This document shows positions 9,963-56,794 of a stretch of DNA of 64,000 nt, piece after piece. Origin of the DNA: Psammoneis japonica (lineage: Eukaryota); contig QPGO01000243.1 in assembly GCA_008632985.1 (NCBI GenBank), positions 1-64,000 on the forward strand, given 5' to 3'. The notes under the pieces were generated by a model, which was not told where the DNA came from, made no database searches, and was given only the letters and a program-made list of their open reading frames with translations. Each line of letters opens with the position of its first letter. The stretch's first letter is position 1. The position numbers were made by a program, and so were the translations under genes.

Positions 9963-10068
9963 GTTGTGTGTCGTCGGTGTTGTTGCCGCAGCATCCGTCT
10001 GTCATGGCTCCAACGGCATGTTTGCCTTTTCTCGTTCCTTGAGTGCAGGTTTTGCATCACGTGGCACC

Positions 10069-12282: not shown

Positions 12283-12318
12283 CAGATGAAGCGTAGATGG
12301 GGCATTTCAAAACTTTGG

Positions 12319-13857: not shown

Positions 13858-13950
13858 GAGACATGGAAAGGTCATGACCACAATCAACACTCGACAAAGC
13901 CTGCACTTCAAGCAACGAGAAAAAGGCAAACATGCCGTTAGATTGGCGAT

Positions 13951-14510: not shown

Positions 14511-15269
14511 CACCAAAAGCACAACTTGAGCACGAGCATTCATTTCGCAAGTGCATGAAAGAGCTCGCATCGTACATGCATGAAAAAAAACGTGCCGTCT
14601 GTCATGGTCTGCATCCCGGAAGCATGTGGGATTTGAATTTTGGAACATTGCGATTGTTGTGAGCGATGTCACGAATTTTTTACTTTCCAAAACCTCAAAA
14701 CCACCATGACGACCAAAGAAAGCAGCCATGACAATCTGTGGCTCACCCAGATCAAGCAAGGCATCCACAACAAGGTCGGAAGAGACAGCGTGCGGGGCGA
14801 AGACATCTGGGGGGGAACTTGCAGAGGGAGTGCAGTGCGCACCATTGCGTGGGATGAAATGCTTGTGTTCACAATCACACATTGCTGCATGTGCAAATCA
14901 GGTCACAGTTGTGGATGTGTGCAAAAGGACAGATCAACCAGCACACAGATTTGGTTGGATGTCTCGAAAACTGCAAATGCGATCGACCGACGATGTCGAC
15001 ACATGAGGTGTCAGCGCTGATCACATCCGGACAATCTGCTGTCACAATCAGATGCTCCAAATGACCTTTGGTTTGCAAACATGGTGCAAATGCTTTGGAC
15101 CATTGAGAGCTCCTTCAGAGAAACTCCAAATGGCAGAACAAAGTCCAATCTCGCAATTTTTGTTTTTCGTGAGATTCGCTCTGTTTTGCCTGCACTTGTT
15201 CTTTGAGCACAGTGCATTGTGCACACACACCACAGAAAGCAAAGAGACAAAAGTGAAGCTTTTGTCTCA

Positions 15270-17870: not shown

Positions 17871-18399
17871 TGCCACATGGCAAGCCGTGTGCAGAAACCC
17901 TTGACCACAGGCAGACTCAGCACTTTTAAAAATTGGCTCACTTTTTTGCAGTCTGTGACATTGGCATGACGTGGCAAAACATTCACCACTGCAACAAAAA
18001 AACAGAAGGCATTTGCAGCTTCTGCGATGATGTTCAGAGTCGATTGGAGTGGGTTGGTGTGGTGCTTTTGCTGCTGCCAATGGTTCACAACCATGCTGTC
18101 AGTTGGCAAGTGCAAAACCTTCTTGTTTCACCTTCTTCTCCTCTTTTTTGACACGTGTGTTTTTTTCTGCCTTTTGTGTTTGATCAGTGGGCAAGAATCA
18201 CCAACAGCAAACATGATGACAGTGTGGGAAGTTGACTGTCAATCCACAATGGCATTGTGGCCTTGAGTCTCTCAGTGAGGGTGTGCCAAACATCTTCCAC
18301 CAAAAAGTGGAAACACATGCACATGCAGACAAATGCAAAAAAAAGAACTTCACTGCAACACTCAACACCTCCAAATTAAATTCAATTCAATCTTAAATT

Positions 18400-20780: not shown

Positions 20781-20900
20781 TCCATGAAATTGATGATGCC
20801 TTTGCAACTTTGGAAATTCACTCCTTTTCACACATGAACAAACAAAGACACTCTCAATTCCTCTGCGTTTGACCACATGCAAGGCATTTGTGGTGTGCAG

Positions 20901-21024
20901 CCCCCAGGCATGCAAAAAAAGGAACTGAAAGGGGCTTCAAGAAAGCTCGCCAACTTGCCAGGCCCCCGGGCATGCAAAAAAAGAAACTGAAAGGGGCTTC
21001 AAGAAAGCTTGCCAACTTGCCAGG
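20901..21024. repeat. 62-bp tandem duplication (2 copies)
   Basis: CCCCCAGGCATGCAAAAAAAGGAACTGAAAGGGGCTTCAAGAAAGCTCGCCAACTTGCCAGG repeated with three transitions. Confidence 0.85.
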
Positions 21025-24000
21025 GGCTGAGGCAGCCAACCTGACAGGAGCCTCTGAAAAATTCATTGTTGGCAAGTCTTGTCCTGGCAAAAGGTGGCAC
21101 AGCTGGAAGAGAAGCTGGAAAAGACACAACGATGCCATTCTGGCATGTCTGCTGGTGCTGTGGCACCCAATGTGAAGTCTCTGTTTGGTGCTGCCATCCT
21201 GTCCTTTGTGCGCCAATTGCAGAATCACAAAGATGAATCCAAGAAATGCATTGGGGCAGTGTTGGAGAAACTGCCATCTGCCACAACACCAATTCTCTGG
21301 TGTCTTGCACAAACTGAGTGGTTTTTTGTTGTTGTTTTGTCAACCAGCAAGAGAGCTTGCGCATGTGCTTTGCAAGAAATTGCGCGCAGCAGTGTGGGCA
21401 GTCTTGATGTGCATTTGGGCAGTCTCAAAAGGGGTTTGTGTGATGTTCTGGAAGAGATTGAGAAAATTGCTGGCAGGGGGAGTTTGCACAAAATTCTGGA
21501 ACAGACCAAGAAAATTGCAGGAAAAGAAAGCACAGAAAGTGCGGAGGAGGGGGGCATTGAAGAAGAGCACAAACACCAAGCATGGCAAATGACCCTGCTG
21601 CTGCCTTGGTTGGTTGATCCACAGGCTCAAATTCAAGAAAGGGTCACCTGGGGTTTGATTTGCATCGCACCTTTGTTTGTGCGTGTGTTCACCAGAAGAG
21701 CTGCTGCATGTGGTGATCTTGCACTGTTGCTCTGCATGAAACTCAACAACCATTGGAAGAATGGCTTTGAGAGGTTGACATTTGGTTTGTCATTTTCATG
21801 TGTTGATTTTGTCTGGCTGCACGAATTTTTTGTCTGGACAAACTGGAGCTGTGTTTCGAGATCCAAGTTGACTGGGTCACCATGCCATTCACAGGTTTGT
21901 GCACACAACAACTTCAAGGTTGTAAATCCCTGCCAAAGTGACACCACAGTCATCAAAAGTGCAGCTGCAATGTTGATTCAGTGGCAAGTTTGTGTTCAAA
22001 ATTTTTTTCACAAAAGCTCGCATCGCACCCCCACTTTGTGCATGCGGTGTGGGGCTGGTGAAAATCCCTAGAAAAAAAAAGAGTGTGATTGATGCATGCT
22101 CTGGTGCACACCATGAGACTCCTCACTGCAACCTGCATCTGCTGCAGAGATTAAAAATTGAGGCGTGCAAATGTGGCATTGTCTGCCTTGATCCATCTCC
22201 CAACAATGGACAGATGGGGAGCAAACCTTGTCACGTCATGTTCTGGTGCACCCGACAAAAGAGGGGCTGAAGGCAGATTGGCATTGGCTCCACTTCATTC
22301 TCCCAACCTGACCCTCTTGGGTGACAACCATGACAAATGCACAACAGCAACACAATGAATGACAAAAAATGAGCACAATGAAAAATGTGCACAATTCATT
22401 GGCAAATGAGGCTTTTTTTTTTGTTGCAATCATTGCACACAACCTTTTGTGCATGATCACAAAACTGAGTTCCCAATGATTTGAAAGTTTCACCTTCTTT
22501 GACACCAAGATGTTTGAAAACACACCACCTGTTTTTAAAACAATTTTTGTTTCATGAGCTGGCTGCAAAAGATGGTTGTGTGACATTGACAGTGTTGGGC
22601 TCAATCTTGAGCTCTCCAGCTTGCATTCTGGAGTCTGCCCTTTGGCTTCCTGCACACTCAGATTTGCAAAGTGCTTGCTCCTCAGCACTGCTGTTGCAGG
22701 AGAGGATTTCAGCGGGGGTGCAGAGGGAGCCATTGGCGCGTGCGCAACAGGATGTTGATGGGACAAGGTCACACCATGACATGCCAAGCCAGACAAGGAT
22801 GCTGCACAAAGCCTCAAATGTGGCCATGGTGCACTCTCACAACTGGCTGACAGTCAACTCAATCATTCCTTTTCTTTTGCCAGCAAAGGGGGAAAGAGTG
22901 AGAGCTGGGGAGAGGGCAGTGTGGCTGTTGGCTGTGCACAAAGAGTGCTCTGTGATGAGTGGCACATTTTTTTGCACTTGGAGTGGCTCTTCAATGAGGG
23001 TGGTCTCTGTGAAAAGAGACTGAGTTTTGTTGGTTGGTTTGTGCCAATCTGGGTTTTGCAGATGCATGCCAAAAAAAGCTGGTTGTTGCTCCCTTGAAGT
23101 TGGAGCAGCAAGAGCTGACCTCCAGCTGGGCACAAATGTGTGCAGATGAGGAGAGCTTGGTTTCTGGTGCCACCAGGGCTGACGTTTGTGGCAGATGGGT
23201 CCATGGCAGGCAGACAGATGTCAGTGTCAAGCATGTTGTTGCATGAGTGCAGCTTTGTCAAAGAAGCTGCTGCTGGTGCATCATGCATGTGCCTGCTGCC
23301 ATGCTCCTGGCCAGTGCAGCATTGTTTGTGCCCTTGCTGTTTTGGCCAACATGCACAACAAGAGTGGTGCAATGCTGGGGGCAAGCCAGCAGCAACAAGT
23401 CAAGTGCAGCAATTTCTGAGTTTTGCTTGTGCCATGATGGCTGGTGTGGGTCCATGCATTGGTTGCCAACAAGCTGTGATGCTTGGCTTGCAAGGTGCTT
23501 GTGCTGTCATCATGAGCGGCACAAAATGGGCAGCTCATCAAGGTGCTTTTGACCTTTGGGAGTCTTTTGGTCTGCTGTTGGCATTGGAGGCAATGTGGCA
23601 AGCCTTCCAGCTGCCCCCTGTTTCTTGTTGCAGGGTTGTTGAAGCTGGGGCATGCGTTGACCACACTGGCCTTTGCTTGTCTTTTTGTGTGTGCTCTCAG
23701 GCTGGCCAACATGTGGCGAGTGGTGCCCTCTCTGTCCATGACAACCAAGTTGAGTGGGAGGGCTCCACTTTGAGTGAAACAGAGAGAGCAAGCAGTGTCA
23801 GCTGTCATCACAAGAGAGGCCATGGAGAGCTTTGATCTCAGCAAGATGTGCCTTGGGCACATGCTGAGAAATGAGAGCAGGTGTTGTCCAGGCAGTGTGG
23901 GCAGCAGACAAGACCCAAGCTGTTGAGAACACAGCCTGCACACACCATTGGCTCATGTGTGCAGCCAGCATTTGCAGCACCAATGGGCACCGTCTTGTTG

Positions 24001-24139
24001 CAGCAAGCTCTCTTCCTCAGCACAAACAAAAACATGCAAGTGCATCTCTTTGTGGCACACAGGTGCACAGAAACAACAACAACAACACCAACATCAGCAC
24101 ATTGGCAAGAAATCACAAAAAAGATGTGCTCTCTCTGTG

Positions 24140-25380
24140 TGTGGTGGCAGCTGCTGCATGCCTTGCCAAGAGCCCTGCATGGTTGGCCTGCTTCCTCTGT
24201 GTGTGAAGACAGAGTGGCAAAATGTGCTCTTGGGTCCTCTTGGAAAAGCCTCAATTGAGGGGGGTCATTTGCTGCTTTTTCAGCTCAAATTTGACCAAAC
24301 AGCTTGTGACTTGCATGACTTTTCCTGAGTTTCACTGCGCTTTGCTGTGGTGCAAAACATCAAGCCACATTCTGTGTTGGAGGTGGCTGTTCACCAACTC
24401 TCCATTGCTTTGTGCTTGTTCTTGTGCATGTCAAAGGTTAAAAAACACCAAATGTCTGTGGCGCCATGGGCCACCACTGCATTGATGATTGCTGTCATTT
24501 TGTCGTGCTTCAATCATGGTGCATGATGCCCTCATTTTAGTGCATGGCCTAAAATTCCTTCCAAGATGATGATGTTGTGAGCTTGAGCTGATGAAACCCC
24601 CTTCCCTTTGATGCACCCCTCCTCAGTTTGCACCTGATGTTTCCCTTTTTGTGCTTGTAACTTGTGACGAACACTGTTGGCTTTAAAAGAGAGTGACAAA
24701 ACTTTGGAGTCTTTGAATTTTGTTGAACATTCAGGGATGTTTGAGACAAAGATCCAGGCATCACGTTGCATTGTTGTTCTTTGCTGGCTTGCACTGAAAT
24801 GCCCAGACATCCACACAATCTGGCAAGGGTCATGCTTCCCATCTTCAACTTGCACTTTTGACTCTTTTTTGATCAAAAATCAACACAAAAAACCAAAACA
24901 ATTCATCACTGGCATGAGACAATGAAGTTTTGCAAGAACCTCCAGCGGGTGGTTGATGCATCAGATCCAGAATGGGTGCTGCATTGGACCAACTGCAAGA
25001 TGCTCAAGGCGAGTGGATTGATTGTTAAATCAACATGAAACAACGATGCTTTCAACTTGGCTGCAACTTCACATCATTCTCTTCATCCGCGCTCCCACGC
25101 CAAGACTTGTTTTGATTTTCACTCCAGAGTTTTCTGGATTCCCTTTCATTGTTTAAAGTTGTGATGCATTTGTTTCCATTGACATTGAGTGATGTCATTG
25201 TCCTGTTCAAGATCTTGATTTTGATTGGCTCAAAGATGTTTTTGAATGAAACGATGTGTGAATCTTGCGTCATTGTGTCATCAAATGAGCTGGAATTCAG
25301 AATCTTTGTTTTTGTCAATTTGTTTTGCTTCCCCAAAAAATGACGTGTGCGCATCTTGAACTTGCTCAATGACACCCTCT
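24140..25380 (+). pseudogene. Mutated duplicate of the SPX 5' region (upstream, exon 1 at 24922-25008, most of intron 1)
   Basis: Colinear with ~38425-39790. Exon reads MKFCKNLQRVVDASDPEWVLHWTNCKMLK; donor GTAAGT changed to GCGAGT; copy ends before exon 2. Confidence 0.92.
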
Positions 25381-26478
25381 GGTGCCTTCAGATTTGTGAC
25401 AAACAATGCCGACTTTGTTGAGTGGAGAGTCAAAAAGCCCAATGAGCAAGCAAAGGAGAGGCAGCGGGAGGAGGCACAGAAAGAGCTGCAGGGGTGGGAG
25501 CAAAGAAAGGGCGCGCATGCAAGAAAGTGCACAGGGCATTTTAGAGAAGGGACAGGAGATGCATCAGTGCAAAGTTTGGAAAGAAAGTGGAGAGCATGGG
25601 CAGAAAGATGATGAACAACATTGCAGCCGAGAGCTTGGGTGGCCCATTGAGAAGGAGCAGACTGGCACAAGAGGAGCAAGAATGGTCAGCACTGATTTGA
25701 TGCCAGCCAGAAGTGAGCAGAGGATGAGAGCATGGATGGCAAAGTGAGAGTGCAAGAGAAGGCAATGCAAAAAGGATCAGAGCCTTGGAAAGCACAGGAG
25801 TTGGAGCAACCAGGGGGGAGACAGAAGGGCAGACAGAGCAGTTCGCACATCTGAAGGAGCACCAGCAAGAGTGGGGTCAATCACGATGCGCTGCTGACAC
25901 AAGCATGACAGAGCCGATGTGCCAACCCAGGGAGCACGGTGGACTTGACAAGAGCAGGCAAAGAAAGCACAGCAGAGTCAGAGAAAGCCAGAGAGTCAGA
26001 GATGAGGACAGAAGCATGGCAGCAGGATGCAACAAATGAAGCAGTGCGCGCACCAGTTGAAAGTGGGGAACAATGACCTGTGATTCACGCAGCTTTTTCG
26101 CCTCTCTGGTGCTCCTTGAGCCATTGAATGGCCTCAAATGCTCTCACCCAAGAATGCCGGATGATCACAAAGCAAGTCAATTGAAGTGGGAAAGCATCCT
26201 TTTCCCCTTTGCATGGTTGGCTGCAGCTTGAAAAAATGCAACATCGCTGTCGTCGACCCAACAATCACGACCCCGGGGTGAAAGCAACAAAAGTCATAAT
26301 AACATGCTGTGAATTGCCGGCACTGCAGCACCGGGCAAGCTTTTTTCACACTCTATTACAGCACACCAAGAGCACCGGTGTACATTCATTTAAAAAAAAA
26401 ATTCCATGAAAGAAGACCGTTAGTTAGACTAGTCTGATGAGTCGTCTTCGTCCGACGATTCTTCACACCGGTACCTTG

Positions 26479-29400
26479 TCATGGCTGCTGCGCGCGCTGA
26501 AAACTAATGAAAACGTTGTTCTGTTTGCCTCTGCCTCCTCTTCTTTTAATTTGGATCGCATCCTCGCCGACGACCGGATCGCCATTCCGCAAATAGGCTC
26601 GGACAATCATCTTGAAAACACTTTTGTGTTCTACCTCGCTCAAAATTGTCATCACATCTTCCATACGAAGCTTGAAAGTGAGATCATCTATCCCATCACG
26701 ACCGAGCTGGTTGCGTGCAAAGGTAGCCACCAAGGGGTTGCCGGATCGAGGATCGGATGGAGCTCCAACATCTCGGATTCTAAATCGTCGGGGAATAATG
26801 CATGTCTCGTCTTGCCCATCTTTGCATACCCGAATGGTACTCGTGTCAATGTCAGAGACGTCAAGATCACTGCTTCCGAGGATCACTGCTAGTAAACAAC
26901 CACGTGCCTTCAGAATCACTTTGTTGCAGCGCCAGCGGCGCCGATTGCGCCAACAAGTGAACGCACGGCAGGATTTGATGTCAAAGGCAACGACACGTGG
27001 CTGCAGTGGTGCGCTGCTCGGTGAAGCACTCGGTTGGCTGCTCGCGCTTGGTGCAATGCTCGGCGGAGCACTCGGTTGGCTGCTAACAGAGGGGGTGTTA
27101 CTGGACTGTTCTGATGGTTCAGATGAAAGGGAAGTCATTAGACTAGGACCTATGGACGGTTTGGAGCTCATGCTTGGCTCAGTAGACGGAGCAGACGAGG
27201 GCTGGAAGCTGATACTCGGTGAGATCGAAGGAGAAGATGAAGGTTTGGAGCTCACGCTTGGTTCCTCCGATGGTACCAACGACGGCTCCCAGCTCATACT
27301 TGGCAATGAGCTCGGACTGGTGGATGGCCACTTGGTAGAAGCCACCGTTGGTCCTGACGGTTCAATACAGACGTTTCGACTATCACTCGGACATGGATCA
27401 AAATCCTCGGCTTTCATTAGACCAGTCTCGAAAGCGCTCCCAGGGATAACAACTGAATAGAAACCACCGCCGTCAAGGATGAGCTCCGCCACAGAAAAAG
27501 GTCCGTCAAGTCCATTTTCTGCAATCAGAGTCCCATTGAATTCGAACGTTATTGGATTAGTGCCGCTCTTGAGGCTAGTAAGGTCAGAAATATAGTTGTC
27601 GATTTCTGTTCCATTGGTGTCCTGCAGCGTCGCAGACCAATGATACTCGCCCTCTTGTTCGATATAAATACTCATCTCCACGCGGAGATCGTTGTACAAA
27701 TCATCATCATCGGTATCGATGCCATACGTTTCTACCATGGACGTCCAAAGATGAATAGGTTTGTGCTGGAAGTCACGAAAAGAATACGCGGCCGTCTTAT
27801 AGGTCTCGCTCATTTCTGCGAGTATAGCAATGGAAAGGTCGCGCTCTTCAGCAAGGCGAAGAGCGGTAAGTAGTATGGCCCGTCTACTTGGTTCTGGAAG
27901 ATGGATCTTCCGTCAAAGGCGACGTCCACGCTGTTGATACCGCTCTGTAGTTCGGCATCAAACCCGGTAGTTTGCTTGTTTGCCGCGGAATCCGTCAACT
28001 CACCGAAGATTCGGTGAACGCCGGCAGCGGTTGCATCTACGCTCACCTTGACTACCAGTCGATCGTAATAACCATCTGAGTTATCATCGGCTCCCTCATC
28101 AGAGAAGTTGTCGTCGAGGATCAAACTGCCTGCGGTGACGATGCCAAGGACGTACTTGCTACGAGAAAATGATACTGGAACTTCGCCGTCTGCTCTAATA
28201 CTTGTACGGTAGTTTCCTGGCACGTTGGTGTCGAAGAATTGGCCGGTGTAAATGCCGTCATCCGCAACTTCATCTGGGGAAACTCCATCATCTCGCAAGG
28301 AGATTACTTCCAGTTCTTCTTCAGGTGTCGCTACAACAGCAGAAACATTTGCACCTGTAAGTGGCGTCTCGCCATCTTGAGTCAAAGTCCCAAAGTATGT
28401 CAAGGGAGTGCCGACTGCAACAGAAGCTTTGTCCAAAGACACTTCAAGGGTGATAGAGGAGCCACTCAAGAGCACCATAACAACATATTCTACACTGGCC
28501 TGATCAACGACATCGCCACTGACCGAAGCAACCAAGCTCTCATTTTTGACATCAAAAAGCCTGTAGATTACCGTTTTGTTCCCTTCATACTTAAATTGTT
28601 CAAAGGCTATGTTGGGCACCTGAGAATGTGTAAGGTTGAAGCTAATCTGGCCTGATGTGTAGGTGAACAGTACATGCGCGTCAGACGCTGTATCCAATGT
28701 GAGGGGAAATTTGAAGACTTCGCCCTGTGCAACTACACCTGCAACGGTGAAGCACTCAACATTGTTAGACGCTGCTATCAGCTGACGGTTTGGAGGGTCT
28801 GCTCTGAGCAAACGACGAGACAGAGGCTTGTGCTCATATCTGGTATCTTCTATATACCCGATAAGCTTGTTCAAGACATATCCTGATTGAGCAGTCCATC
28901 TGGTCCTCCATGCGCTGCATCAGCGGTCGCCCGGAGTAGAGAATTTCATCGCTGGTATAATCCAATGCAAAGGCAGACGTGACAGGAACAACTCCGTCAC
29001 CAGCACCAATCAATAGGTTCAAAATGAAGTTCAATGGGAATTCGAAAAAATCAGCGATGACACTGCCAGCGAGGACAGTGTACCTACGCCAGGAATCAAA
29101 AGTGAGGAGAGAACGCCATGAGAGCTGGCTTTTATTCCGCCGAAGGTCAAAGATACTGGCCGCACAAACAGACAATTTATGTCCTTACCTGACGTTTGGA
29201 TTGTATCCATGCAGTAGATTGTACACTTTCATGTGCGTCGTGGATAGCTGATAAAATGCTGGTCCCGTACCCCCCAACACTAATTCTTGAAAAAATCCCA
29301 AAATTAAAACAGTAGCGAGTGCTACGTCAAAAAGATTTACATCTTCTTCTGGTTTTAGCACTTTTTCCAAATGAGTCCCAATTCCAGAGATGATCCAATG

Positions 29401-31086
29401 GCCAACTCAACAAGGGTAGTTCCTTCGTTGGGTGTGGCAATCTGAATCAGCTGAGCTATATCATCATGATTCTCAACGTAGTGCCGGGAATCAAGACCCC
29501 CTTTGCTGTGTGCAACAATGTTGAGTTTGTCCACACCCCAGCGTCTCTTTGCGTCAGCGATTGCTAATTTAAGGTCATGAGCATTGTTTGCAATAGAATC
29601 ATAACCTCCCAGGGAGATATGTCCGTCAAAGGGAATGCCGAGACTGGTCAAATGATTCGCCCATGTGCGCCCGATCCACATACTTGCACCTGCTCTATAT
29701 CCGTGAACCAGCAGGACGGGACGAGGTGCCTCATCAATTGTTAGTTCAACCTTGTCTACTTGGATGCACTGGACCAGCCCAGCACCGGTGACTTCGATAC
29801 GAACTCTGTTCATTTCTGGCTCCAGGGTTCCATCTTTTCCTGGGTCATCTGGAAAGTTGACTACCTCGAGTGGAATACTGAATCTGTTCATTTTCCATTT
29901 CCCAGGGTCGCCGGTGAGAACGCCAACTTCATCATCATTGAAGTAGACATGAAAGCGCATTCCATTTGATGGATATGGCCTGGTCGGATTGTACTCGATG
30001 TCGTAGGCCGCGATACGTAGGACTGCCACCTCAGGAATGAGACCATTTTCCAACAGTTTTGTAATATCTCCATAGTAAGGGACTACTGAGTCAATTTCCA
30101 ATGGGATGTTTGGACCATATGCACAGTTGTCCTCGAGCCTGGCTCCTGAGTACTGATCAAAGGCCAGCGCATCGATTCTAGGAATTCTGGTACTAATGAA
30201 CCAAGGAAGAACGGTCTTTCCATATCCACAATCTGAATCATGTTCTGGAATCCGCCGTATCCCCCTGGGGCATACATTAGCTGACTACGAGGCCGAAGGT
30301 CACCACTCCCTGTTAAGAAATGTGGAGGCCTATACTCGTTTCCTTGAGACTGCTGCGGAATGAGAACACCGTTGACCGTGTCGACTATATGGTGGTCAAA
30401 AAATGAATATGAAACACCCTTTAAGCTGTATTGATGCAACACATCATTTCATCAAAGCCGAGGCTAAGGCCAGCCCAGACACGTGGACAGCAAATTGGAG
30501 GTCGGTAACGATCTCCAATTATCGAGGTCACTCCGTTTGTGGTATCAACATTTAAGATATACCACACCCCTCCTATGTCGGTCTTCACAATGTAGATTCT
30601 ACCGGACTTATCGATTGCCAGTGTTCCGCTGTAGTCTGATGATCTCTGGTACGTCTTGAAGACTCGACCGGTTCTGTCATCAATGAAGACCAATTCCGAA
30701 ATACCAAAAGAACAAGAAATTCTGCCACAGTATGGATGGCTGACCAGTCCAACTAAATGGCCACGGTAGCTGTCGTAGGCTAGGGAATGGAAACGCCTGC
30801 GACCACTGTAATATGTGGTCCCATCGTTGGTAATCTCGTGGATGTAGCTCACAATATTGCTTTCTCCGGTTACCTCATCCACCTTGTAGAGTGTGGCTCG
30901 GGACGTGTCGTCTGTTCCCACAACGTACAGAGTACTGGCCGCTTCGCCGACCAACAGAGCCAACAGAGCGAGGACCTTTCCAATTGCTGATCAGACAAGA
31001 AGCAAGAAAGCGGTGAGCAGGATGGGAGGGGTTAAAAGAAACAAGTTTGCTCTCTGTGGTTCACCCTTACCTCCAGAAAACTTCAT
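26479..31086 (-). CDS. Large secreted multidomain protein: propeller-like N-terminus, alpha/beta-hydrolase (lipase-like), choice-of-anchor-X-like Ig domains, Pro/Ser stalk, C-terminal domain
   Basis: ATG 31086 plus a short intron gives MKFSGAIGKVLALLALLVGEAAS; PVLLVHG and NIVAHSKGGLDSR; LRDDGVSPDEVADDGIYTGQF; two DxDxDxxY repeats; PSxxPS repeats. One more intron near 29085-29190; about five other breaks look like frameshifts. Confidence 0.75.
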
Positions 31087-31352
31087 CTTCTATCCGATAA
31101 AGATGGCAGGTATGATAATGTAACGATGATGTATTGAAAAAGGTATCATTGCTTGAATTGTGGGATGAGTTCGCATCAAAGATACGAGTTCGCATTGAGA
31201 CAACGAACTGTGGCTACAGTACAGTAGGGCCCTACCGGTACGTACCGCATTGCCGAGTTAGGATCCACGAGATAGAGTGGATGGGTGCGCCCGCCCTCCG
31301 AAGCTAAGAGTGGGGTGCGCCATCCAAGGCTGTCCAAGGTGCGAGCAAATCG

Positions 31353-34300
31353 TGGCATGTGTCCGGTCACGTAGGTAGCTCCGAGTTTATGAAAAAAGAA
31401 GGGGCAAAGGAGGAGGAGGAGGAGGAGCGAGAGAGGGAGAGATGCATTCACAGTGTTCAGTGTGTGCAATGCGTTCAACGTGCGTGCACGACGCACAGAC
31501 GACCAGCGCTTCCGACACAGTCGCAGCTCCCCACTTTAGAGAGCAAACACTCTAAAGAACAGCAACGTGCCATGATCTGTCTGAGTCATTGCTCACGGAA
31601 AATTTGCACGCCCACTGATGATGCCACCGTTGAGATGCAACCGCACACCAAGCCAAAACTCCATCACTTTTTGCAGCCGGCTCCACCTCATTTTGTCCAT
31701 TTCCTCTCCAGACCCGACTGCATGCGGAAAGTTCCAGTGTCCAATTTCCCACATCAACAAAGAACATCAAAAGACTCAAGTCATTGAGAGCATTGGCATG
31801 GAAAGGCAGCTGCAAGCCCTTGCAGTCAAAAACATCTGTGCTGAAAAATGGCGGGCAAAATGAAAATGTGAGTGGAACCACGCACACAACAACAACCCAC
31901 TGAGGCCACATGTCACAGCGCACTCACTGTGTCAGCTTCCAGAGGTGGCACTGAGATGCCCCACCCAGTTTTAAGGCCCCAAGTGCTGCCAGTGGTTCGT
32001 GGCATCCGAGCATCCAAGAGGAGGTGAGGAGGCCGTCTGGGCAAGCCTTCGCCTCTCCATTTTGTCCGGCACAAAGCCTGGACTCGTTGGCACACTGCCA
32101 AGATCTCCCTGCATGATGTGGACAAAATTGTGTCTTGGACAATGAAGATTTGATTGCAGAGCCAGAAGAAAGGCTCGTCACAGACCAGACACCTGCACAC
32201 ATGAACGAGACACACAAAAAAGGCTCGTGAGGTGCGCGGCTTTCGTCAAAACGACTCTAAAACTCAATCAATCACAACGCACTCACAGGATTGTCTTTTT
32301 TGGAGCATGTGAAATCTGTCTTACAAACGTCATTGTTGCAAGTGTCTCCAAGGCTCCATCATGTTGTTTTGTTTCCACGGCATGCATTTTTGAGAAGTTG
32401 ACATTCTAAAAAATGACGTGCCATTGTTGTGCACTGACCAAGCCCCCAAGAAGGACATCAAGCAAGTCACAAATCCACCCCAATGTAAATGACAGGTGCG
32501 CCAAAGGATGCAGAGTGGGGTGCAGCACAAGGCTTCCAAATGGATGCACTGTGGTGGTGCAAATGCCGTGAAAAAGTTGCCAACTTTGCCAGAGCTTCAG
32601 TCAACCACGCGAGACAATCAATCGACCTTGCAAGCTGTGACAAAATGCAAAACAACAATCTTCAGCAAGCATTCAAATGGCATAAAATGAGAAAACATGG
32701 AAAGACCTCATCTCGGCAATGTTGTCGACCACTCAGATGTTGCCCGCACCGTGCCTCATTTGAGTTGCGAGTCAAGGCACGCAACCGTTTGCAGCATGTG
32801 CAGCAACCAAAGCACCCCAGGAGACCAAACCAATGCATCAACCTCTTTGTGACAATGACAGAAAGAGATCACCCATGAAAAATGCTTCTGCCCCACGATG
32901 TTTGCCATGCTGAGATGCATCAAAGTGCAGTGTGCATGGCCATTTCTTGTGGCGCGGCATGCCAAATCGGGAGCATTTGAGTGGAATGAAGAAAATGAAG
33001 AGGATTCCCTCTTTTGTGTCATTGCACAACTTGTGCCAGATTGGACTGTTCATTTCTGCTTGTCATCACAGAAATGGAATTTTGTCATTGTGGGATTCTG
33101 CACAAGTTCCAGCACATTTCCCACACAGTTTGTGAAGAGCCACACCTGCACAGCTGGATGATTGCCTGTTCTGGCACATGTCTGGTCATGCAGGTGGCTC
33201 CAAGTTTGTGGAAAAAAAGAAGAGGCAAATGAGGAGGAGGAGCCAGAGAGGGAGAGACGCATTTGCAGTGTTCAGTGTGTGCGCAATGCGTTCAATGTGC
33301 AATGTGCATGCACGATGCACAGACGGCCAGGGCTTCTGATGCAGTCGCAGCTCTCTGCTCTAGAGAGCAAACACTCCAAAGAACAGCAACATGCCATGAT
33401 CCATCCAAATGCATTGTCTGCTGCTTCATTGCTCACGAAAAATTTACATGCCCACTGATGACACCACCGCTGAGATGCAACCACACGTCAAGCCAAAACT
33501 CCATCACTTTTTGCAGAGCCGGCTCTACCTCATTTCATCCATTTTGTCTCTAGACCCAACTGGATGCAGAAAGTTCCAGCATCTAATTTCCCACATCAAC
33601 AAAGAACATCAAAAGACTCAAGTCATGGAGAGCATTGGTGTGGAAAGGCAACTGTGAGCCCTTGCAGTCAAAAACATCCATGCTGAAAAATGACAGGCAA
33701 AATGAAAATGTGAGTGGAACCACACACACACAACAACCATCCACTGAGGCCATGTGTCACAGTGTGCTTCCTGCGACAGCTTCCAGAGGCAGCTCTGAGA
33801 CGCCCCACCCAGTTTTAAGGCCCCAAGTGCCGCCAGCAGTTTGTGGCATCAGAGCATCCAAGAGGAGGCAAGGAGGCTGTCAGGGCAAGCCTCCACCTCT
33901 CCATTTTATCCGGTGCAAAGCCTGGACTTGTGGGCACACTGCCAAGATCTCCCCATGTAACGTGGATAAAATTCTGTCTCAGACAATGAAGCAAATCGAT
34001 TGCAGAGCCAGAAGAAAGGCTTGTCACAGACCAGACACCTGCATGCATGAACGAGACACACAAAAAATGGCTTGTGAGGCACACGACTTTCGTCAAAACG
34101 ACTCTAAAACTCAGTCAATCACAGTGCACTCAAAAGATTGTCTTCTTTGGAGCATGTGAAGTCTGTCTGACAAATGCCACTGTTGCAAGCATCTCCAAGG
34201 CTCCATCACATCATTTTGTTTCCATGGCGTGCACTTTTGAGAAATTGACATTCCAAAAAATGACATGCCATCGTTGTGCGCTGACCAAGCCCCCAAGAAG

Positions 34301-34987
34301 GACATCAAGCAAGTCACAAATCCACAATGTAGATGACAGGTGCACCAAGGGATGCAGAGTGGGGTGAAGCACAAGGCTTCCAAATGGATGCACTGTGGTG
34401 GTGCAAATGCCGTGACAAAGTTGCCAATGTTGCTGAAGCTGCAATCGACCGTACAAGATGATCAATCAACCTTGCAAGCTGTGACAAAATGCAACAACAA
34501 TCTTTGGCAATTGTTCAAATGGCACAAAACAAGAAAATGTAGAAAGAACTTGCCACGGCAATGTTGTCAACCATTCAGATGTCACCCGCATGGCCCCACA
34601 TTTGAGTTGTGAGTCAAGGCACGCAACCGTTTGCAGCATGTGCAGCAACCAAAGCACCCCAGGAGACCAAACCCATGCATCAACCTCTTTGTGACAATGA
34701 CAGAAAGAGATCACCCATGAAAAATGCACCTGCCCCACGATGTTTGCCATGCCCAGATGCATCAAAGTGCAATGTGCATGGCCGTTTCTCATGGCGCAGC
34801 ATGCCAAATCGGGAGCATTTGAGTGGAATGAAGGAAATGAAGAGGATTCCCACTTGTGCCAGATTGGACAGCTCATTTCTGCTTGTCATTGCAGAAATGG
34901 AATTGTGCTGTCACAGGATTCTACACAAGTTCCAGTGCATTTGCTGCGCAGTTTGTGAAAAGCCACCTGTGCAGCTGGACGATTGCC
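31353..34987. repeat. Direct tandem duplication, unit ~1.82 kb (31353-33166 and 33172-34987)
   Basis: Colinear landmarks offset by ~1.8 kb, e.g. AAAGAACATCAAAAGACTCAAGTCAT, CCCCAAGAAGGACATCAAGCAAGTCACAAATCCAC, CAGCTGGAYGATTGCC. Confidence 0.9.
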
Positions 34988-35167
34988 CAAATTGTTGTGG
35001 ACAAAGTTCTGTGGGCCGCACGTTGCATTGCAGTCACCGATGACCAGAGACTGCACAAATTGAATGATGGAAATGTCCAGCAATGTTGGCGTGACCAGAG
35101 GGTTGATCATTGTTGACAAATCATTTGCTTGCGCACACTCAGAGGCACAGTTTGACAACAAAGTTTG

Positions 35168-35206
35168 NNNNNNNNNNNNNNNNNNNNNNNNNNNNNNNNN
35201 NNNNNN
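35168..35206. other. Assembly gap (39 N)
   Basis: Run of N. Confidence 1.
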
Positions 35207-36099
35207 GGTTGTGGGTGAGTCAACCACAACAGTTGCATCATTGTTTGTGTCTTTGCTCTAAGTTTTTTGCCATGAGCAGTGTGAAGAGGTCCAGCTGAAA
35301 CTGGTGAGCAGCTGACAAAAAGTTGACAACCACAGTTGCTGGTGCAGCAGTGCCTCCTTGCAAAACGCAGTGCCGGAGCAGGATGTCGTCAGATTTCAGC
35401 ACCTTTTTGCAACATGGAGTGGGGGTTTTTCCCTGTGTGTTGCAACCTCAAGTGCTGGTTGACTTCTTGGTGGCAGGTTTGGCCACGCTGTTGCTGACAA
35501 GAGCACTGCATCTCAGCTGCCACCTGTTGTCATGCTGCACTGTGCTTCTGTGCATGCTCCAATTTTTGCAGCTGGTGTGGGTGCCAGATCTGCTGTCAGT
35601 TTCCACTCAAACATTGAAAAGCTGTGAAACCAGAAACAGCACAAAGAGAAGCTGCAAAAGGGGGGGGTGGCAGCACAAAGCTGTTTTCAAGGAGAGCAGG
35701 AAGCAGAGTAAATCAAAGAAACTGAAGCCAGCAAAAATGGAGAGGTCAAGAGCATTGGCTCAGATTTGAAGGCTTGAAAAGTCACTGGGTTCTACAATGA
35801 GTCTGTCTGTTGAAGTCTTTCTTGGTTGAGAGCTGTTTTTGGTCTCAGAGGTCATGAGAAAATGACTGCAACTGCACTGTGCTCCATTTCTGACAGATGC
35901 ACATGATGTTTCAGATTTCATTCAACAGGTCATCTGAGGTGAACAAGCATGCATTGCAGACACATGTGCCAGTGGAGAGACTGGTGTGATCTTAAAGTGA
36001 CTCTTCTTTGCAAAGGGAGCAAGCACCACAACATTCCCTCAATTTTGTGGTGGTGGAATTGGAGGGAGGCAAAGGAGTCATCTTGGGTGAGAACAGCAA

Positions 36100-38380
36100 T
36101 TGTTTGAAAAGGTGGAGCTGTGCGCATCTCCGGCAACATTGGCGCAGCACTTTGTGTCCTCAACACTGACAGCCAGAAGTGGTGGATTGGTCAACCAAGG
36201 TGCCACTTTAGCTGGGCAATCACACATGATGGTGTCCCATTCGTGGATTGTGCAGGACCAGCATTTGGAAAACAGCCATCATCCTGCCAAGCAGAAGCTC
36301 ATGGCATGCTGTTGATTGTTTGTTTCGCGTGTCATTTTGTGGAATTTTGCAGGGTCAAATCAACAAACAGAGTTGACAAAGCTTTGGTGTTTTGCTTGGA
36401 TTGCTTGACCCTCACGCCCCCCACCCCAACTCTCGCAGAAGATTCCAACAATGACTGAGATTTCCACTTGCAACATCACAGCGCCAACAACACTCTTGCT
36501 TCCAACTGGGGGGGCACAGTTGACAAAATTCTCCACATGCACATCATCCCCATCCAGTCTCACAATTCAATGGGTGAAAGGCCACCAAGAAAGACATGCT
36601 TCTGTCCACACTCTTCCCTTTCAGGCTTGAGTGAAAATCTGGGTGGATGAGTCAGCCGGTGCTTGCCAACGTCATTGTCCAGGGGATGCTGTGCAAGTGA
36701 TGCCATTTCCCAATTGCTGCACACATTTGTCAGTGGTGTAAGAAGGCACAGTGACTTTGACTTGCAATGCGGTGCTTGTCAAATGACACTCCAAGCAACA
36801 TGTCAATGCAGCCAAGCTTGTTCACAATCTTCTCCCTGCAAACAAGATCCCTCATCAGCATGATCTGGTCCAACCACATCATTGTTTGACCTGCAAACAC
36901 CCAATGAAAGACAGAGATCATGCACTGAGGTGCCCAGACAACAAAGAATGGCAAAAAAAGTTTTTGTGCAAGGTGGCACAAAAGCCACATGTTGTGGGGT
37001 TACAAACAAATGTTCAAATGCAAATTTGAACACATCCAATGACAAATTCACATGGAGCGCATGTCTGAACAAAAATGTCTTTTGGAGTCGCCACTTTCCA
37101 ACATTCTAAACATGCCATGACTCGTGATTCTCCACATGATGATTTCTCCCAAAAACCATCACTGTTTCACATCATCCCCATCCAGTCTCACAATTCTTTT
37201 CCCTTGCAGGCTTGAGTGAATGTCTGAGCAGATGAGTCAGTTGGTGCTTGCCAAGGTCATTGTCCAAGGCATGCTGTGCAAGTGATGCCATTTCCCAATT
37301 GCCACACACATTTGTCAATGGAAGAAGGCACAGTGACTTTGAGTTGCAAGAAACAGATCTGGCATGCAGCTGCTGCTCTCCAGCTGCTGGAGTGCATTGT
37401 CAAGTGCAGTCAGTGGTGCCCTGATGTTGCAGAACTGATGGACTGAAAAGCTCATGCAGTGCTTGTCAAACAGCACTCCAAGCAACATGTCAATTGCAGT
37501 CAAGCTTGTTCACAATCTTCTCCCTGCAAACAAGATCACTCATTGGCGTGATTTGGTCCAACCACATCCTCATTGTTTGCCCTGAAAATGCCCAATGGAA
37601 GACAGAGATCACACACTGAGGTGCCAGGACAATGAAGCATGGCAAAGAAAGTTTTTGCAAGGTGGCACAAAAGCCGTGAGTTGCAGGGTTACAAAAATGT
37701 TCAAATGCCAATTTGAGCACATCCAATGACAAATTCACATGGAATGCATGTCTGAACAAAAATGTCTTTTGGAGTCACCACCATCCAACCTTCCAAACAT
37801 GCCACAACTCATGATTCTCCACATGATGATTTCTCCCAAAAACCATCACCATTTCACATCGTCCCCATCCAGTCTCATAATTCTTTTCCCTTGCAGGCTT
37901 GAGTGAATGTCTGGGCAGATGAGTCAGTCAGTGCTTGCCAAGGTCATTGTCCAAGGCATGCTGTGCAAGTGATGCACCATTTCCCAATTGCCGCGCACAT
38001 TTGTCAGCGGAACAAGGCACAGTGACTTTGAGTTGCAAGAGAAACAGATCTGGCATGCAGCTGCCATTCTCCAGCTGCTGGAGTGCATTGTTGAGCGCTG
38101 TCAGTGGTGCCCCAATGTTGCAGAACTGATCGACTGAAAAGCTCGTGCAGTGCTTGTCAAACAGCACTCCAAGCAACCTGTCAATTGCGGTCAAGCTTGT
38201 TCACAAGCTTTTCCCCCTGCAAACAAGATCACTCATCAGCGTGATTTGGTCCAACCACATCCTCATTGTTTGCCCTGAAAATGCCCAATGGAAGACAGAG
38301 ATCACACACTGAGGTGCCCGGACAATGAAGCACGGCAAAGAAAGTTTTTGCAAGGCGGCACAAAAGCCACGAGTTGTGGG
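36100..38380 (+). mobile_element. Degenerate non-LTR retrotransposon fragment with its RNase H end / Zn-knuckle segment tandemly triplicated (~630-690 bp unit)
   Basis: CAGPAFGKQPSSCQAEAHGML, QWVKGHQE, CPMEDRDHTLRC; anchor CCCCATCCAGTCTCA at ~36548, ~37176 and ~37863. Confidence 0.8.
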
Positions 38381-39107
38381 GTTGCATTGGCGAGAAGGAA
38401 CGAAATTGATGTGCTTTGTGTGTGAGTGGTGGCTGCTGTGTGCCTTGCCAAGAGCCCTGCATGGTTGACCTGCTTCCTCCATGTGAGTGCAGAGTGGCAA
38501 AATGTGCTCTTGGGTCTTCTGGGAAAAGCCTCAGCTGGGGGGTCATTTGCTGCTTTTTCAGCTTGAATTTGGCCAAACAGCTTGTGACTTGCACAATTTT
38601 TCCACTTCTCCATGGTGAAAGGCATCAGGCCACAGTCTGTGTTGGAGGTGGCCTGTCCACCCACTGTCCTTTGTTTTGTGCTCGTTCTTGTTGTGTGCGT
38701 CAAGCCCAAATGTCACACACGCACAAACACACACACACATGCCACCAAATGTTTGTGTGGACCATGGGCACTCCTGCTGCATTTTAGAGAAACATTTGTG
38801 ATTGCCAGCATTGTCATGGTGCCTCGGTCATGGCATCATCAGGCCCAGGTGTGAGCATTTTTTGCACTAAAAAACAAACACCACAGACAACCTCGTTAGG
38901 GTGCAGAGGCGCAGCTCCAGGACAAGCTCGGACTCGGGGTCCCCAGAAAAAAAAATCATTCCAAGATGATGATGTTGTGAGTTTGAGCTGATGGAACCAT
39001 TCCCTTTGATGCCGTTCCTCCTCAGTTTGTGCCGAAAATGTTTCACTTCTCGCGCTTGTGACTTGTGACAAACTACGGTGCACAACATGATGGGTCGACT
39101 TTGAAAG

Positions 39108-39172
39108 AGAATCATGAATCTTTGGAATCTTTGAATTTTATCGAATATTCAGGAATATTCGACAAAGATTCA
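39108..39172. promoter_or_regulatory. Cluster of candidate phosphate-starvation TF sites upstream of SPX
   Basis: GAATATTC twice (39143-39150, 39153-39160; fits GNATATNC) and TGAATCTT on both strands (39115-39122; 39165-39172 reverse). Confidence 0.6.
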
Positions 39173-39337
39173 GGGCACGCGTCACTTTTTTGTTCTTTGC
39201 TCGTTCGTACTGAAACGTGTAGAAATCCACGTAATCTGGCGCGGGTCATACTTCCGCTCTTCAACTTGCGCTTTTGACTCGTTTTCGATCGAAAAAATCA
39301 ACACAAAAACCGAACGATTCATCATCGGCATGAGACA

Positions 39338-40901
39338 ATGAAGTTCTGTAAGAACCTCCAGCGGGTGGTCGACATATCAGATCCAGAATGGGCACCGTAT
39401 TGGACCAACTACAAGATGCTCAAGGTAAGTGGATCGTTTGTTCAATCTCAACACGAATGAATGATGCTTTCGCACTTGGCTCCGTCGACTTCATGTCATT
39501 CTTCATCACGCCCACAAGACTGTTTCGATTTTCAATCTAAGTTTTCTGGATTCCTTTTGATTATTTAACGTCATGACGTACTTATTTCTGAATATGTTAA
39601 GTGATGTCATTGTCGCACTTAATATCTTGATTTTGATTGGCTCAAAGATGTTTTTGAATGAAAGTTTGGATGAATCTTGCGTCATTTGACGTTAAATAAA
39701 TTGGAATCTAGAATCTTTGTTTTGTAAATTTGTTTTCCTTCCACGAAAAATGACTTGTAAGAATTGAACTTACATACTCAATGACACCCTCTTCCGTCGT
39801 TGTTTTTTTTGCCATTGCAACAGAAATTAATCAAAGAATTACCATCGCTGGTGCCTTCCGATGATGGGACAAAGGCACAGAGAGCACGTGCTGCGTCGAT
39901 GGAAGGAACTCGGGCCGCCTCACCGTCCTTGTCGGTGGATTCGGCTTTGTCTGCTGGACGACAACAACAACAACAACAACACGGCGACAAAACTACAGAG
40001 ACTGCGGTGGTTGTAAATCCTGAAGGAGGAGAATCAAATGAAGCAGATGGGGTTGCTAGGCTAGAAACAAATGAGAACGCAGCTAGTTATATTGGAAAGA
40101 GCCCGGGGGAAGTTGCGTTTTTCAAATTATTGCATACCGAATTCAACAAGGCAACGCACTTTTTCGCACGAGCAGAGCAGGAATTTGTTATTCGAGAAGA
40201 GCGAGTCCGAGAGGGTATGAGGATTATGAAGCAACCGAATTCAATCATGGTTAGCGAAAAGTGGTCGCTCCTGGCGAAGAGTCTGTATCGATTGTATAAG
40301 GATTTGTTGTTGCTCGAGACCTTTGCCATTATGACTTATTGCTCTTTTTCAAAAATTCTGAAGAAACACGACAAGGTTACTGGTTATAATACCCGTGCCA
40401 AATTCATGGCAAATGTGGTGAGCAAGGCGAACTTTACAAATTATCCTTTGGTTCTGGAAATGATTAGTAGGTGCGAGCAGCTATACGAGGAGGTTTCAGC
40501 AAAGTTGATTCAAGAAGGAAAGCAGGGGCTTTTTGATTGATGAAAGACTTTTCATCAACATGATCCACAGACTCAATGAGCAGTGCATGGATACCGCCGA
40601 TGGAGAGGGTGCGGAACGCAAGGAAGTAAAGAGGTCAATCGGGAATGACGTCGCGTCGCTACCGGGAAATAGGCGTGAAAGCGAAGCAACGTCTTCTTTA
40701 CGATCTCTGGTGGAGGAAAACGACAAAAAGAATATGCTAGCGCAAGTATCCGAAGGCGCAACAGGAGTTGACTACGATGATTGCTGTGATGACTGCTCAA
40801 CATCGGTTGCTGAGGGTAGTCAGAAAAGACCAGCATCAGACATGAGTTATTATGAGACCGGGGAGAAAGAACAAAAGAGACCCAGATCACATGAGTCGTG
40901 A
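39338..40901 (+). CDS. SPX: Stand-alone SPX-domain protein (phosphate sensing)
   Basis: Exon 1 MKFCKNL...PEWAPYWTNYKMLK (39338-39424), intron 39425-39823, exon 2 KLIK...FFKLLHTEFNKATHFF...FSKILKKHDK. Apparent frameshift near 40535. Confidence 0.9.
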
Positions 40902-55268: not shown

Positions 55269-56794
55269 TCACGCCTCTGATTTTATGACTTCACCACCAC
55301 CCAAAGAACTCCCCTCTGCTGCCGCAAAGAACTCTTCCCAACCCTCGATGATTTCTCTTTGCTTTTCATCTTGACAACGCCTCAAGTTTAGACACTCTCG
55401 CAACAGATTCCCACTCACATGAGGAGGAACCCGCGTGCAGCTCTGACACCACCCCGTCTTGGTGCAAATCTCCATTCCACACTGAACACTCGGAACCATG
55501 AGGCCGCATCGGACACACTCTTCACCGTCGGTGGGTTTATGAAAGGGCCCAAAGCGAGTCGCATTTCGGGCAATCCCCCCTCCCAGCACACTCTGTGCGG
55601 CCAAATGCCAATGCCCTGACGCATGTCCCACAACTCGTCGCTGCGGCCCTGCATTTTGGTTGGGAATTCGCGCAAACGATCCAAACGAATCTCACCGGGA
55701 AAGTCCTTGGCCTTGCTCAGTCGCATGCGATGCTCGTCTTCTCGTTCGAGCTGTCGACGCAAGTTGTGGAATCGGTTCTTGATGCCATTGTCGGTCCGTC
55801 CCGGAATCATCTTTGACATTTTGGCCCAGTGACTGCCAGTGGTGTTGTAGAGATGAAAAATCGTAGCGTCCTCTACAGGACTCCAGTCGGAAACCTTGAG
55901 CCGCGGATTCAAATGGTTGACATAACGCTCACGACATTGCTTTCCGGTGCGTTCCGGCATGGATTGAGCAACAATGGACCACTTCATGGGCATGCGCATG
56001 TTCTTGACGAGGCTCAGAAGAAGGGCGTCTTCTTCCTTGGTCCATGCTTTGGGTCCAGATTTGCGTTTCGCGGAAGCGCCAGAGCCTGGAGAACTTCCAC
56101 GTTTGGTACCGGTAGCACTGGATACCGATCCACCAGGAACACCACTCATAACTTGAGGATAGCCATAAGGAGGATGGTACGGGCCACCAGACGGCCCGTG
56201 ATAGGGCGGGTATGTAGTCGGTGGCATGCCATATCCCGGCGGAGGTGCAGAATACATTGGTCCACCTGAAGATCCGGGTGCAGTTGGACCACCTCCATAG
56301 GGAGGAGGATAGGGCTGTTGAGCCATACCCATGCCCCTTGGACGACCACCCATGGCCGGAGGCATACCCTGCCACTGCTTTTGATCCGGCGGGGATCCTC
56401 CCTGCTGCTGCGGCGGCGGCGGTTCATTTGTAAAGGGCGGAAGTCTTGAAGGCGGGTGACCAGGGGAATGGCGGTCTTGAGGAACCATTCTCTGTTCCAT
56501 GGCCGATGGTGACGGTGGTGCTTCCTGCTGCGGAGGGTCTTGGGGAGGAGGCTGTCGGCCCGGTGCGGTTTCGCCACTCTCACCAATCTTGACCCATTCG
56601 GTATCGTTGTCATCGTACTTGAGCAAGTGTTCCCCGGTGGCAGGATCGTATTGTTGAACCGTGCCCGCGTACCAGCTGTTGTCGACGGGCCAAAAGACAC
56701 GAACCTTTTTTCCAATCATGCAATCCGCACAGAAACTGATGAAAAACAGAGCAAAAGTTGAGTTTGTTATGAGATACTGCCGAACAGAGTCCAT
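55269..56794 (-). CDS. R2R3-MYB transcription factor with N-terminal Tudor-like domain and C-terminal Cys cluster
   Basis: IGKKVRVFWPVDNSWYAGTVQQYD...HLLKYDDND; WTKEED...RTGKQCRERYVNHL...WSPVED...PGRTDNGIKNRF. Start uncertain; frameshift near 55600. Confidence 0.85.

Follow-up and report, generated by a model that had tools for sequence, protein, structure and literature searches.

The 64,000-nt stretch of Psammoneis japonica DNA analysed here (contig QPGO01000243.1, positions 1 to 64,000; the window) carries an SPX gene and, some 14 kb away, a second copy of its upstream DNA, promoter, first exon and most of its first intron. Only the second copy has lost the TA and CG dinucleotides that the native promoter, exon and intron still hold, and the evidence supports the view that mutation in this region follows location, not homology. 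We consider it likely that silent islands of the genome are mutated in place according to their position, and that the SPX copy was erased in such an island while the native gene was spared.

The ectopic copy lies about 14.4 kb upstream of the native sequence in direct orientation and stops 31 nt short of the 3' splice site. Two blocks can be aligned, native 38385-38691 with 24100-24425 (80.2% identity) and native 38951-39792 with 24551-25380 (77.6%). A tandem array built of units of about 690 nt (36611-38386, + strand; copies 84-92% identical) ends at the exact base, 38385, at which the duplicated block begins, and the copy locus is without this array. The native proximal promoter, exon 1 and intron (39060-39823, 764 nt) contain 29 TA, with an observed/expected ratio (O/E) of 0.41, and 38 CG (O/E 1.32), whereas the copy (24660-25380, 721 nt) contains 3 TA (O/E 0.05) and 12 CG (O/E 0.40; Fisher's test, p = 2.6e-6 for TA and 4.4e-4 for CG). 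The native sequence differs in the same way from its own upstream part (38425-39050, 626 nt), where 3 TA (O/E 0.08) and 10 CG (O/E 0.26) are left (p = 1.6e-5 and 5.6e-4). Its TA O/E of 0.41 falls in the normal range (9th percentile among 327 undepleted intervals of 764 nt), and none of the 244 intervals of this length from depleted parts exceeded 0.20. A sequence-only reading of this DNA had proposed that the native promoter and intron keep their TA and CG although a homologous copy lies about 14 kb off, and that the native upstream part is already TA-depleted. Both proposals agree with these counts, and the three strings quoted for the first were located in the intron (TTATTTAACG at 39561, GACGTACTTATT at 39575 and AATATGTTAA at 39591).

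The polarity of the differences was read from homologues. Among 120 listed SPX homologues, 20 start with the MKF exon and were used; the other 100 were excluded. The native exon-1 peptide carries the majority residue of these 20 at 29 of 29 positions and the copy departs from it at five (I13A, A19V, P20L, Y21H by TAT to CAT, and Y25C by TAC to TGC), so that, judged from these peptides, the native state is the ancestral one. A Pfam search with the 29-residue exon-1 peptides returned no SPX match, the peptides being too short for one. In the proximal part, aligned over 720 positions, 28 of the 29 native TA are lost from the copy, 10 having become TG and 12 CA, with one unchanged; these 22 of 29 are transitions restricted to TpA that give TpG or CpA. 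Of 36 native CG, 33 are lost (14 to TG, 10 to CA) and 3 unchanged. Only 3% of TA and 8% of CG are intact in the copy, against 50-90% for the remaining 14 kinds of dinucleotide, and adenine has changed to guanine at 11 of 29 positions after T compared with 3-7 of 44-70 after other bases. In total, a native TA or CG is matched by TG or CA in the copy at 46 sites, and the reverse is seen at 5.

When the 46 TA and CG site changes are left out, proximal identity is about 84.6%, the level of the upstream parts, TA-free in either copy (84.5% and 85.6%); what sets the copy further apart is thus exactly the context-specific component. The upstream alignments contain 6 discordances of TG against CA in 406 positions, and the proximal part, with its unmutated native partner, 8 in 720. 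Had both upstream copies been depleted independently, about 19 would be expected, as a rough estimate from domain densities. The shortfall suggests that the upstream part was depleted already at the time of duplication, and that the duplicated segment therefore spanned a pre-existing boundary, with only its formerly protected part changing at the new site. The native boundary appears to have held while the pair diverged by about 15%.

Dinucleotide profiles along the window fall into two states. Domains were called with a two-state hidden Markov model (HMM) on TpA alone, change-points were computed on TA and CG together, and the resulting features are collected in Table 1. Within the three depleted domains TG and CA rise to O/E 1.5-1.9 and ApT is unaltered at 0.82-0.90; outside them TA O/E is 0.55-0.65 and CG O/E 0.82-1.04. 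Independently built contigs of run X1, possibly the sample from which the window was assembled, match the depleted sequence, a single piece covering 21001-24439 with 12 differing letters, so the composition is no assembly artefact. The domains are discrete regions in sharp contrast to their neighbours, with change-point support intervals of 30-200 nt. At the boundary TA loss is abrupt and CG O/E recovers gradually across 1-1.5 kb.

The domain edges lie close to what appear to be transcription units. A contig of a second run, X2, begins at 39294 in the SPX gene and jumps precisely from 39422 to 39822, leaving out the 399-nt GT..AG intron; X2 also skips a CT..AC interval of 105 nt at 29080-29186. 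The run is classed as DNA by a guess only, and spliced transcripts are the simplest reading of it. A contig without the intron argues that native SPX is expressed, with transcription probably starting at or before 39294. X2 has no cover across most of the depleted domains, which is not evidence that they are silent. The SPX-side boundary lies 200-490 bp 5' of the ATG, depending on the criterion, and the edge of domain 2 about 180-230 bp beyond the end of an X2 contig at 26473. The boundary is thus less exact than the distance of about 280 bp before the ATG given by the earlier reading.

The boundary of domain 3 at 31568 crosses a 1.8-kb tandem repeat. Within 31353-31567, 12 sites (8 CG and 4 TA) that the inner copy has lost survive in the outer one, with a single site in reverse. 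Past 31568 mutation has reached both copies, between which there are 49 discordances of TG against CA, and this points to independent changes made in place. Over the repeat, X1 contig depth adds up to 400-800, compared with about 60 in the bins on either side, a depth that is not a copy number; several X1 contigs diverge just before 31360, and many joints skip about 1.83-1.87 kb. The high depth and the divergence of contigs suggest further copies elsewhere, and the repeat probably represents an element that is multi-copy or varies in its tandem number. Ten ORFs (open reading frames) scanned from it gave no Pfam match.

A DNA transposon lies across the edge of domain 1 at 14005, its right inverted repeat forming an island of normal composition with limits at 13936 and 14508. 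Its two ORFs are convergent, each starting at the inner end of one inverted repeat. The repeats are 96% identical, and of 22 differences between them 21 are transitions; the left arm has lost 11 sites (6 TA and 5 CG of the right arm appear as TG or CA) and the right arm 2 CG. Left and right arms contain 6 and 13 TA with CG O/E of 1.33 and 1.50, whereas the unique 4-kb interior has a TA O/E of 0.13 and a CG O/E of 0.70. A CA dinucleotide flanks the transposon on either side and is possibly a mutated TA target-site duplication.

The same loss can be read in the transposon proteins. Tyr makes up 0.4% of the DDE_3 ORF, against 3.9-5.3% in eight homologues. At ten columns where most homologues have Tyr, the ORF has Cys at six, His at three and Tyr at one, whereas columns for Phe, Trp, Leu, Val and Lys have mostly been retained. 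The ORF at 9928-12279 has His or Cys in four of four Tyr columns, so that 13 of 14 homologue-conserved Tyr columns in the two ORFs have become Cys or His. A change of TA to TG or CA makes no stop codon except TAA to TGA and removes TAA and TAG, and both heavily substituted ORFs accordingly stay open. None of 25 related metagenome transposase loci was TA-poor (O/E 0.60-0.95), indicating that low TA is no trait of the transposase family. Foreign DNA of odd composition was also considered as the cause of the domains and was ruled out by the in-place change of a host gene fragment and by the conserved Tyr codons.

A process driven by pairing should mutate inverted repeats at least as heavily as the interior between them, and should mutate both SPX partners; the observed pattern argues against it. 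Within the window mutation was independent of copy number and homology, in that native SPX is spared and the unique interior of the transposon carries more mutation than the arms. The recognised targets in the domains are one DDE_3 transposon, one apparently multi-copy repeat and one host gene fragment. The proposal of the sequence-only reading that only the copy is mutated, by a position-limited process unlike repeat-induced point mutation (RIP), therefore is supported by 46 sites against 5 in the SPX pair, by 12:1 at the repeat edge and by an interior more mutated than its arms. Its further point, that selection on the intron is unlikely as a full explanation, also fits, since the intron retains 17 TA and 15 CG, a sparing that selection alone would not explain.

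The 22 polarised TA sites show 15 runs of TG and CA outcomes against 11.9 expected, and strand-coordinated tracts were found neither by this runs test nor by TG-versus-CA skew in 500-nt bins. Such balanced, randomly alternating outcomes indicate that both strands were affected, by many separate events. Only one of the 29 native TA reads CG in the copy, which fits a requirement for TpA context on the edited strand. Among 76 TA surviving in the old domains, 21 are in TTAA (6.7-fold), CTAA is 3.7-fold enriched and TTAG is also favoured, and none is in ATAT, ATAC, GTAT or ATAG; the sole native TA persisting in the copy, at 39566, is in TTAA context as well. A 5' T or a 3' A beside TA seems to be protective, and the data suggest that the mutagenic activity has a neighbour preference of about V-T-A-B. 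TpA is lost more quickly than CpG, as the O/E values of the transposon interior illustrate, and we take the two losses to reflect separate processes, or else a single one that works on the two with very different efficiency. Adjacent CA/TG double differences between X1 and the window occur at 23839/40, 24043/44 and 37163/64. Such changes would follow if TA and CG were short-lived steps from one stable state to the other, and they could represent alleles, or differences between strains, that arose through a TA or CG intermediate.

The explanation that we favour would run as follows. In silent islands rich in repeats and transposons, two context-specific transitions would proceed almost to completion, A to G at TpA on either strand and, more slowly, C to T at CpG, each giving TG or CA. 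Any DNA within an island would be affected in place, be it repeated, foreign or host-derived, and the process would halt a few hundred bases or less from active transcription units. A segment of 1.4 kb across the old SPX boundary would have been duplicated into an island 14 kb away, where its formerly protected promoter, exon 1 and intron would have lost TA and CG, the native expressed locus retaining both. We infer that the islands are heterochromatin-like and methylated, that active promoters act as the barrier, and that deamination of 5-methylcytosine accounts for the CpG step. For the TpA step the leading candidate would be enzymatic deamination of adenine in DNA, as has been proposed for the chlorarachniophyte Bigelowiella natans.

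In the B. natans study, 231 of 302 new nuclear single-nucleotide mutations in mutation-accumulation lines fell in two integrated viral regions, and 230 of these 231 were A to G or T to C, all 230 at TpA (Mettrop et al., bioRxiv 2026, doi 10.64898/2026.01.13.699255). The rate was about 1000-fold above background, with hypermutation active in some lines only; 124 TpA-depleted clusters were described, with the DDE endonuclease among the enriched domains, and the main target, a giant-virus (NCLDV) region, is single-copy, so that copy number has no bearing there (doi 10.64898/2026.01.13.699255). The two systems share change at TpA only, from T or A to C or G and giving TpG or CpA, together with regional confinement, a strong contrast and the depletion of DDE-transposase genes. 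They differ in lineage, a stramenopile (diatom) here and a rhizarian there, and in degree, with TA O/E of 0.04-0.10 near saturation here and 0.45 in the NCLDV region. CpG loss accompanies TpA loss here and goes unmentioned in the preprint. In the window no virus could be recognised, and the targets seen comprise a transposon, repeats and a fragment of a host gene.

RIP changes CpA to TpA, so enriching TpA, mutates both partners of a duplication and creates stop codons; it depends on a cytosine methyltransferase of the RID/DIM-2 type and acts before meiosis. Like RIP in Neurospora and other ascomycetes, the changes described here are dense, context-specific transitions that inactivate transposons and duplicated DNA. 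However, TpA is erased here and gained in RIP: in place of a TpA excess with loss of CpA and TpG we found TA at O/E 0.04-0.10 and TG and CA at 1.5-1.9. Only the partner inside the island is mutated, both in the SPX pair and where the 1.8-kb repeat meets the domain boundary. No new stop other than TAA to TGA can arise, and two ORFs, of 784 and 561 codons, have remained open. The comparison is valid as a contrast only (RIP features in part after PMC7296669). The CpG half of the signature resembles methylation-driven decay, being symmetric (14:10 for CG to TG and CA, of 36), located in transposon-rich silent regions and accompanied by a CG O/E of 0.26-0.31 in two domains. Such decay covers the CpG half only, which is slower and has gradual edges, unlike the TpA half. 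In the diatom Phaeodactylum tricornutum, transposons are CG-methylated and marked by H3K9me and H3K27me3 (PMC4504042). With editing of the ADAR/APOBEC type the process would share deamination-based hypermutation directed against selfish nucleic acids. In contrast to such editing, it acts on chromosomal DNA in place, including DNA that does not look transcribed, with both strands equal and no strand-coordinated runs, and the neighbour preference deduced from surviving TA (TTAA 6.7-fold; no ATAT, ATAC, GTAT or ATAG) is a different one.

The native gene could owe its integrity to selection rather than to its place. In such an account a RIP-type pairing process would have hit both SPX copies, selection would have kept the lineages with an escaped native gene, and the copy would later have been saturated by decay. 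Both the SPX copy and the 1.8-kb repeat are indeed duplicated DNA, the latter with an X1 depth of 400-800 against about 60, and selection surely acts on the native exon and on the promoter motifs. However, selection on linked sites could not preserve the 17 TA and 15 CG of the intron site by site, the 215-nt start of a repeated element is spared at the domain edge, and a unique transposon interior is more mutated than inverted repeats that are 96% identical. The shared upstream part has 6 discordances of TG against CA in 406 nt where independent depletion after duplication would give roughly 19, and the main B. natans target is single-copy. We regard this account as very unlikely. That the copy was mutated before it landed, so that history and not position made the difference, we find hardly credible. 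It would have come through an RNA or extrachromosomal intermediate, such as an ADAR-edited and reverse-transcribed read-through, or through a mobile element. The island around the copy is rich in transposons, and ADAR enzymes prefer a 5' U. Yet the copy takes in the promoter, an unspliced intron and some 1 kb of DNA upstream; editing of adenosine in RNA leaves the change of CG to TG or CA unexplained; the entire 12-kb domain around the copy has the like composition; and tandem copies formed in place have diverged with an identical signature. Retro-copy structure and one-strand edit tracts, the marks of ADAR editing followed by retro-copying, are both lacking in the SPX copy, in which 15 runs over 22 sites exceed the 11.9 expected.

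Position might also act passively. TpA and CpG lesions would then arise everywhere and be repaired only in transcribed, open DNA, and the islands would reflect missing repair or late replication. The boundaries near transcription units, at the SPX promoter and beyond the X2 contig end at 26473, and the absence of strand bias are in keeping with this. We nevertheless think it improbable, because TA loss is near total where other sites keep 50-90%. We also know of no spontaneous TpA-specific lesion that yields A to G. The rate contrast of about 1000-fold in B. natans, switched on in some lines only, likewise suggests a regulated activity.

Several points weigh against the explanation favoured here. 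Differences between the window and X1, used as a proxy for present activity (40 of 142 places were listed), are not clearly denser in the domain: 12 in 3.4 kb (21001-24439), 3 in 5.8 kb (25598-31389) and 14 in 1.25 kb (39634-40891). The asymmetry between the transposon arms is not datable to the present site, because the inverted repeats of DNA transposons are not made identical at transposition; dating the transposon by their divergence was dropped for the same reason. Slight leakage of the process into the native promoter is conceivable, since the native TA O/E of 0.41 is only at the 9th percentile, and the estimate of the SPX boundary ranges from 38852 to 39138 with the criterion used. The contexts of residual TA, finally, disagree with the 3' neighbour preference of ADAR.

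One recent preprint has described a system of this kind; new here are the lineage, how far saturation has gone, the accompanying CpG decay and the natural targeting experiment. TpA-directed hypermutation has so far been described in one rhizarian alga, in that 2026 preprint, and our literature search for TpA hypermutation in diatoms returned the B. natans preprint only. The same signature in a diatom implies either a wide distribution across the SAR (stramenopile, alveolate and rhizarian) supergroup or convergence. The SPX pair serves as a natural targeting experiment, the same host sequence having been erased in the island and left intact at its expressed home, which excludes homology, foreign origin and intrinsic sequence immunity as sufficient explanations. 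It is possible, and we put it forward tentatively, that diatoms and chlorarachniophytes share an enzymatic, chromatin-guided defence that edits DNA adenines and erases every TpA in silenced DNA, with no need of homology or foreign origin and with active promoters as barriers. If this were so, all Tyr codons, TATA- and P1BS-type motifs and two of the three stop codons would be erased without a premature stop ever being created; host sequence entering an island would be destroyed with its parent safe; and a second eukaryotic system of mutational silencing would stand beside RIP, with the opposite chemistry and another targeting logic. For annotation, hypermutated transposon genes persist as long ORFs lacking Tyr, which gene finders will call as genes.

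Table 1 Features of the window discussed in the text (coordinates are window positions; dots denote features without strand)
Feature	Coordinates	Strand	Remarks
Depleted domain 1	6868-14005	.	TA O/E 0.10, CG O/E 0.65 (CG loss mild)
DNA transposon	9398-14510	.	inverted repeats of 565 and 560 nt, CpG-rich (9398-9962, 13951-14510)
Transposon ORF, no known family	9928-12279	+	784 codons open; 27 relatives
DDE_3 transposase ORF	12322-14004	-	561 codons open
Depleted domain 2	14361-26294	.	contains SPX copy; TA O/E 0.04, CG O/E 0.26
Ectopic copy of native 38385-39792	24100-25380	+	upstream DNA, promoter, exon 1, most of intron; TA to TG/CA, CG to TG/CA
Exon-1 copy	24922-25008	+	Y21H, Y25C; splice donor GCGAGT, native GTAAGT
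1.8-kb repeat, two tandem copies	31353-33166 and 33172-34987	+	TA/CG kept in the opening 215 nt of copy 1, which lie outside the domain
Depleted domain 3	31568-39138	.	adjoins SPX promoter; TA O/E 0.07, CG O/E 0.31, TG/CA about 1.8
Native upstream part of duplicated block	38385-39058	+	within depleted domain; 38425-39050 with 3 TA (O/E 0.08)
Native SPX proximal promoter, exon 1 and intron	39060-39823	+	unmutated: TA 29, CG 38
Two neighbouring GAATATTC motifs (P1BS-type GNATATNC)	39143-39160	+	first TA-bearing promoter positions; both lost in copy
SPX exon 1, 29 codons	39338-39424	+	ATG at 39338; homologue majority residue at 29/29 positions
SPX intron, 399 nt, GT..AG	39425-39823	+	absent from X2 contig; TA 17, CG 15
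SPX exon 2	39824-40540	+	Pfam SPX, E 6.8e-18
Change-point	7069		support 7064-7115
Change-point	26245		support 26224-26251
Change-point	31568		support 31516-31616
SPX-side boundary, TA+CG change-point	38894		support 38852-39051
SPX-side boundary, TA-only HMM	39138		

The P1BS motif is in use in diatoms. The two promoter motifs of native SPX stand about 180 bp 5' of the ATG and are at once a palindromic GAAnnTTC pair; the motif has 10 matches in the whole window against 5.3 expected. They fit GNATATNC, the P1BS consensus of plants (PMC13044247). Three TGACGT/ACGTCA motifs lie in the intron, at 39568, 39574 and 39687, and the copy retains one TGACGT, at 25341; going by these motifs, parts of the intron may be regulatory. 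A scan of 38800-39500 for bacterial promoters and terminators was set aside, the host being eukaryotic. Further downstream the SPX frame breaks near 40527-40540 relative to the homologue P0131, which goes on in another frame (…GLYEDERLFINMIH…). The X1 and X2 contigs have gaps in the SPX gene, and the frame break may stem from an indel of the assembly or reflect an allele or a true frameshift.

The window is nuclear DNA of a diatom. Its intron-free eIF2A ORF (240-2240) has 120 listed relatives, 13 of which carry an organism name, and all 13 are diatoms, among them Cylindrotheca, Fragilaria, Nitzschia, Seminavis and Pseudo-nitzschia; the top match among those listed has 61% identity. A Pfam search of 90 further ORFs of at least 100 residues from the depleted domains found no family. 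An ORF at 3625-6159 (845 codons, 8.8% Cys, no Pfam match) has direct repeats inside it at 5193-5708. Within a depleted domain, 39 N at 35168-35206 represent an assembly gap. The TA-only HMM also flagged a TA-poor stretch of 561 nt in a Myb gene (55286-55846), with a CG O/E of 0.90 and a GC content of 54.5%; this probably reflects the composition of coding sequence rather than hypermutation of an island.

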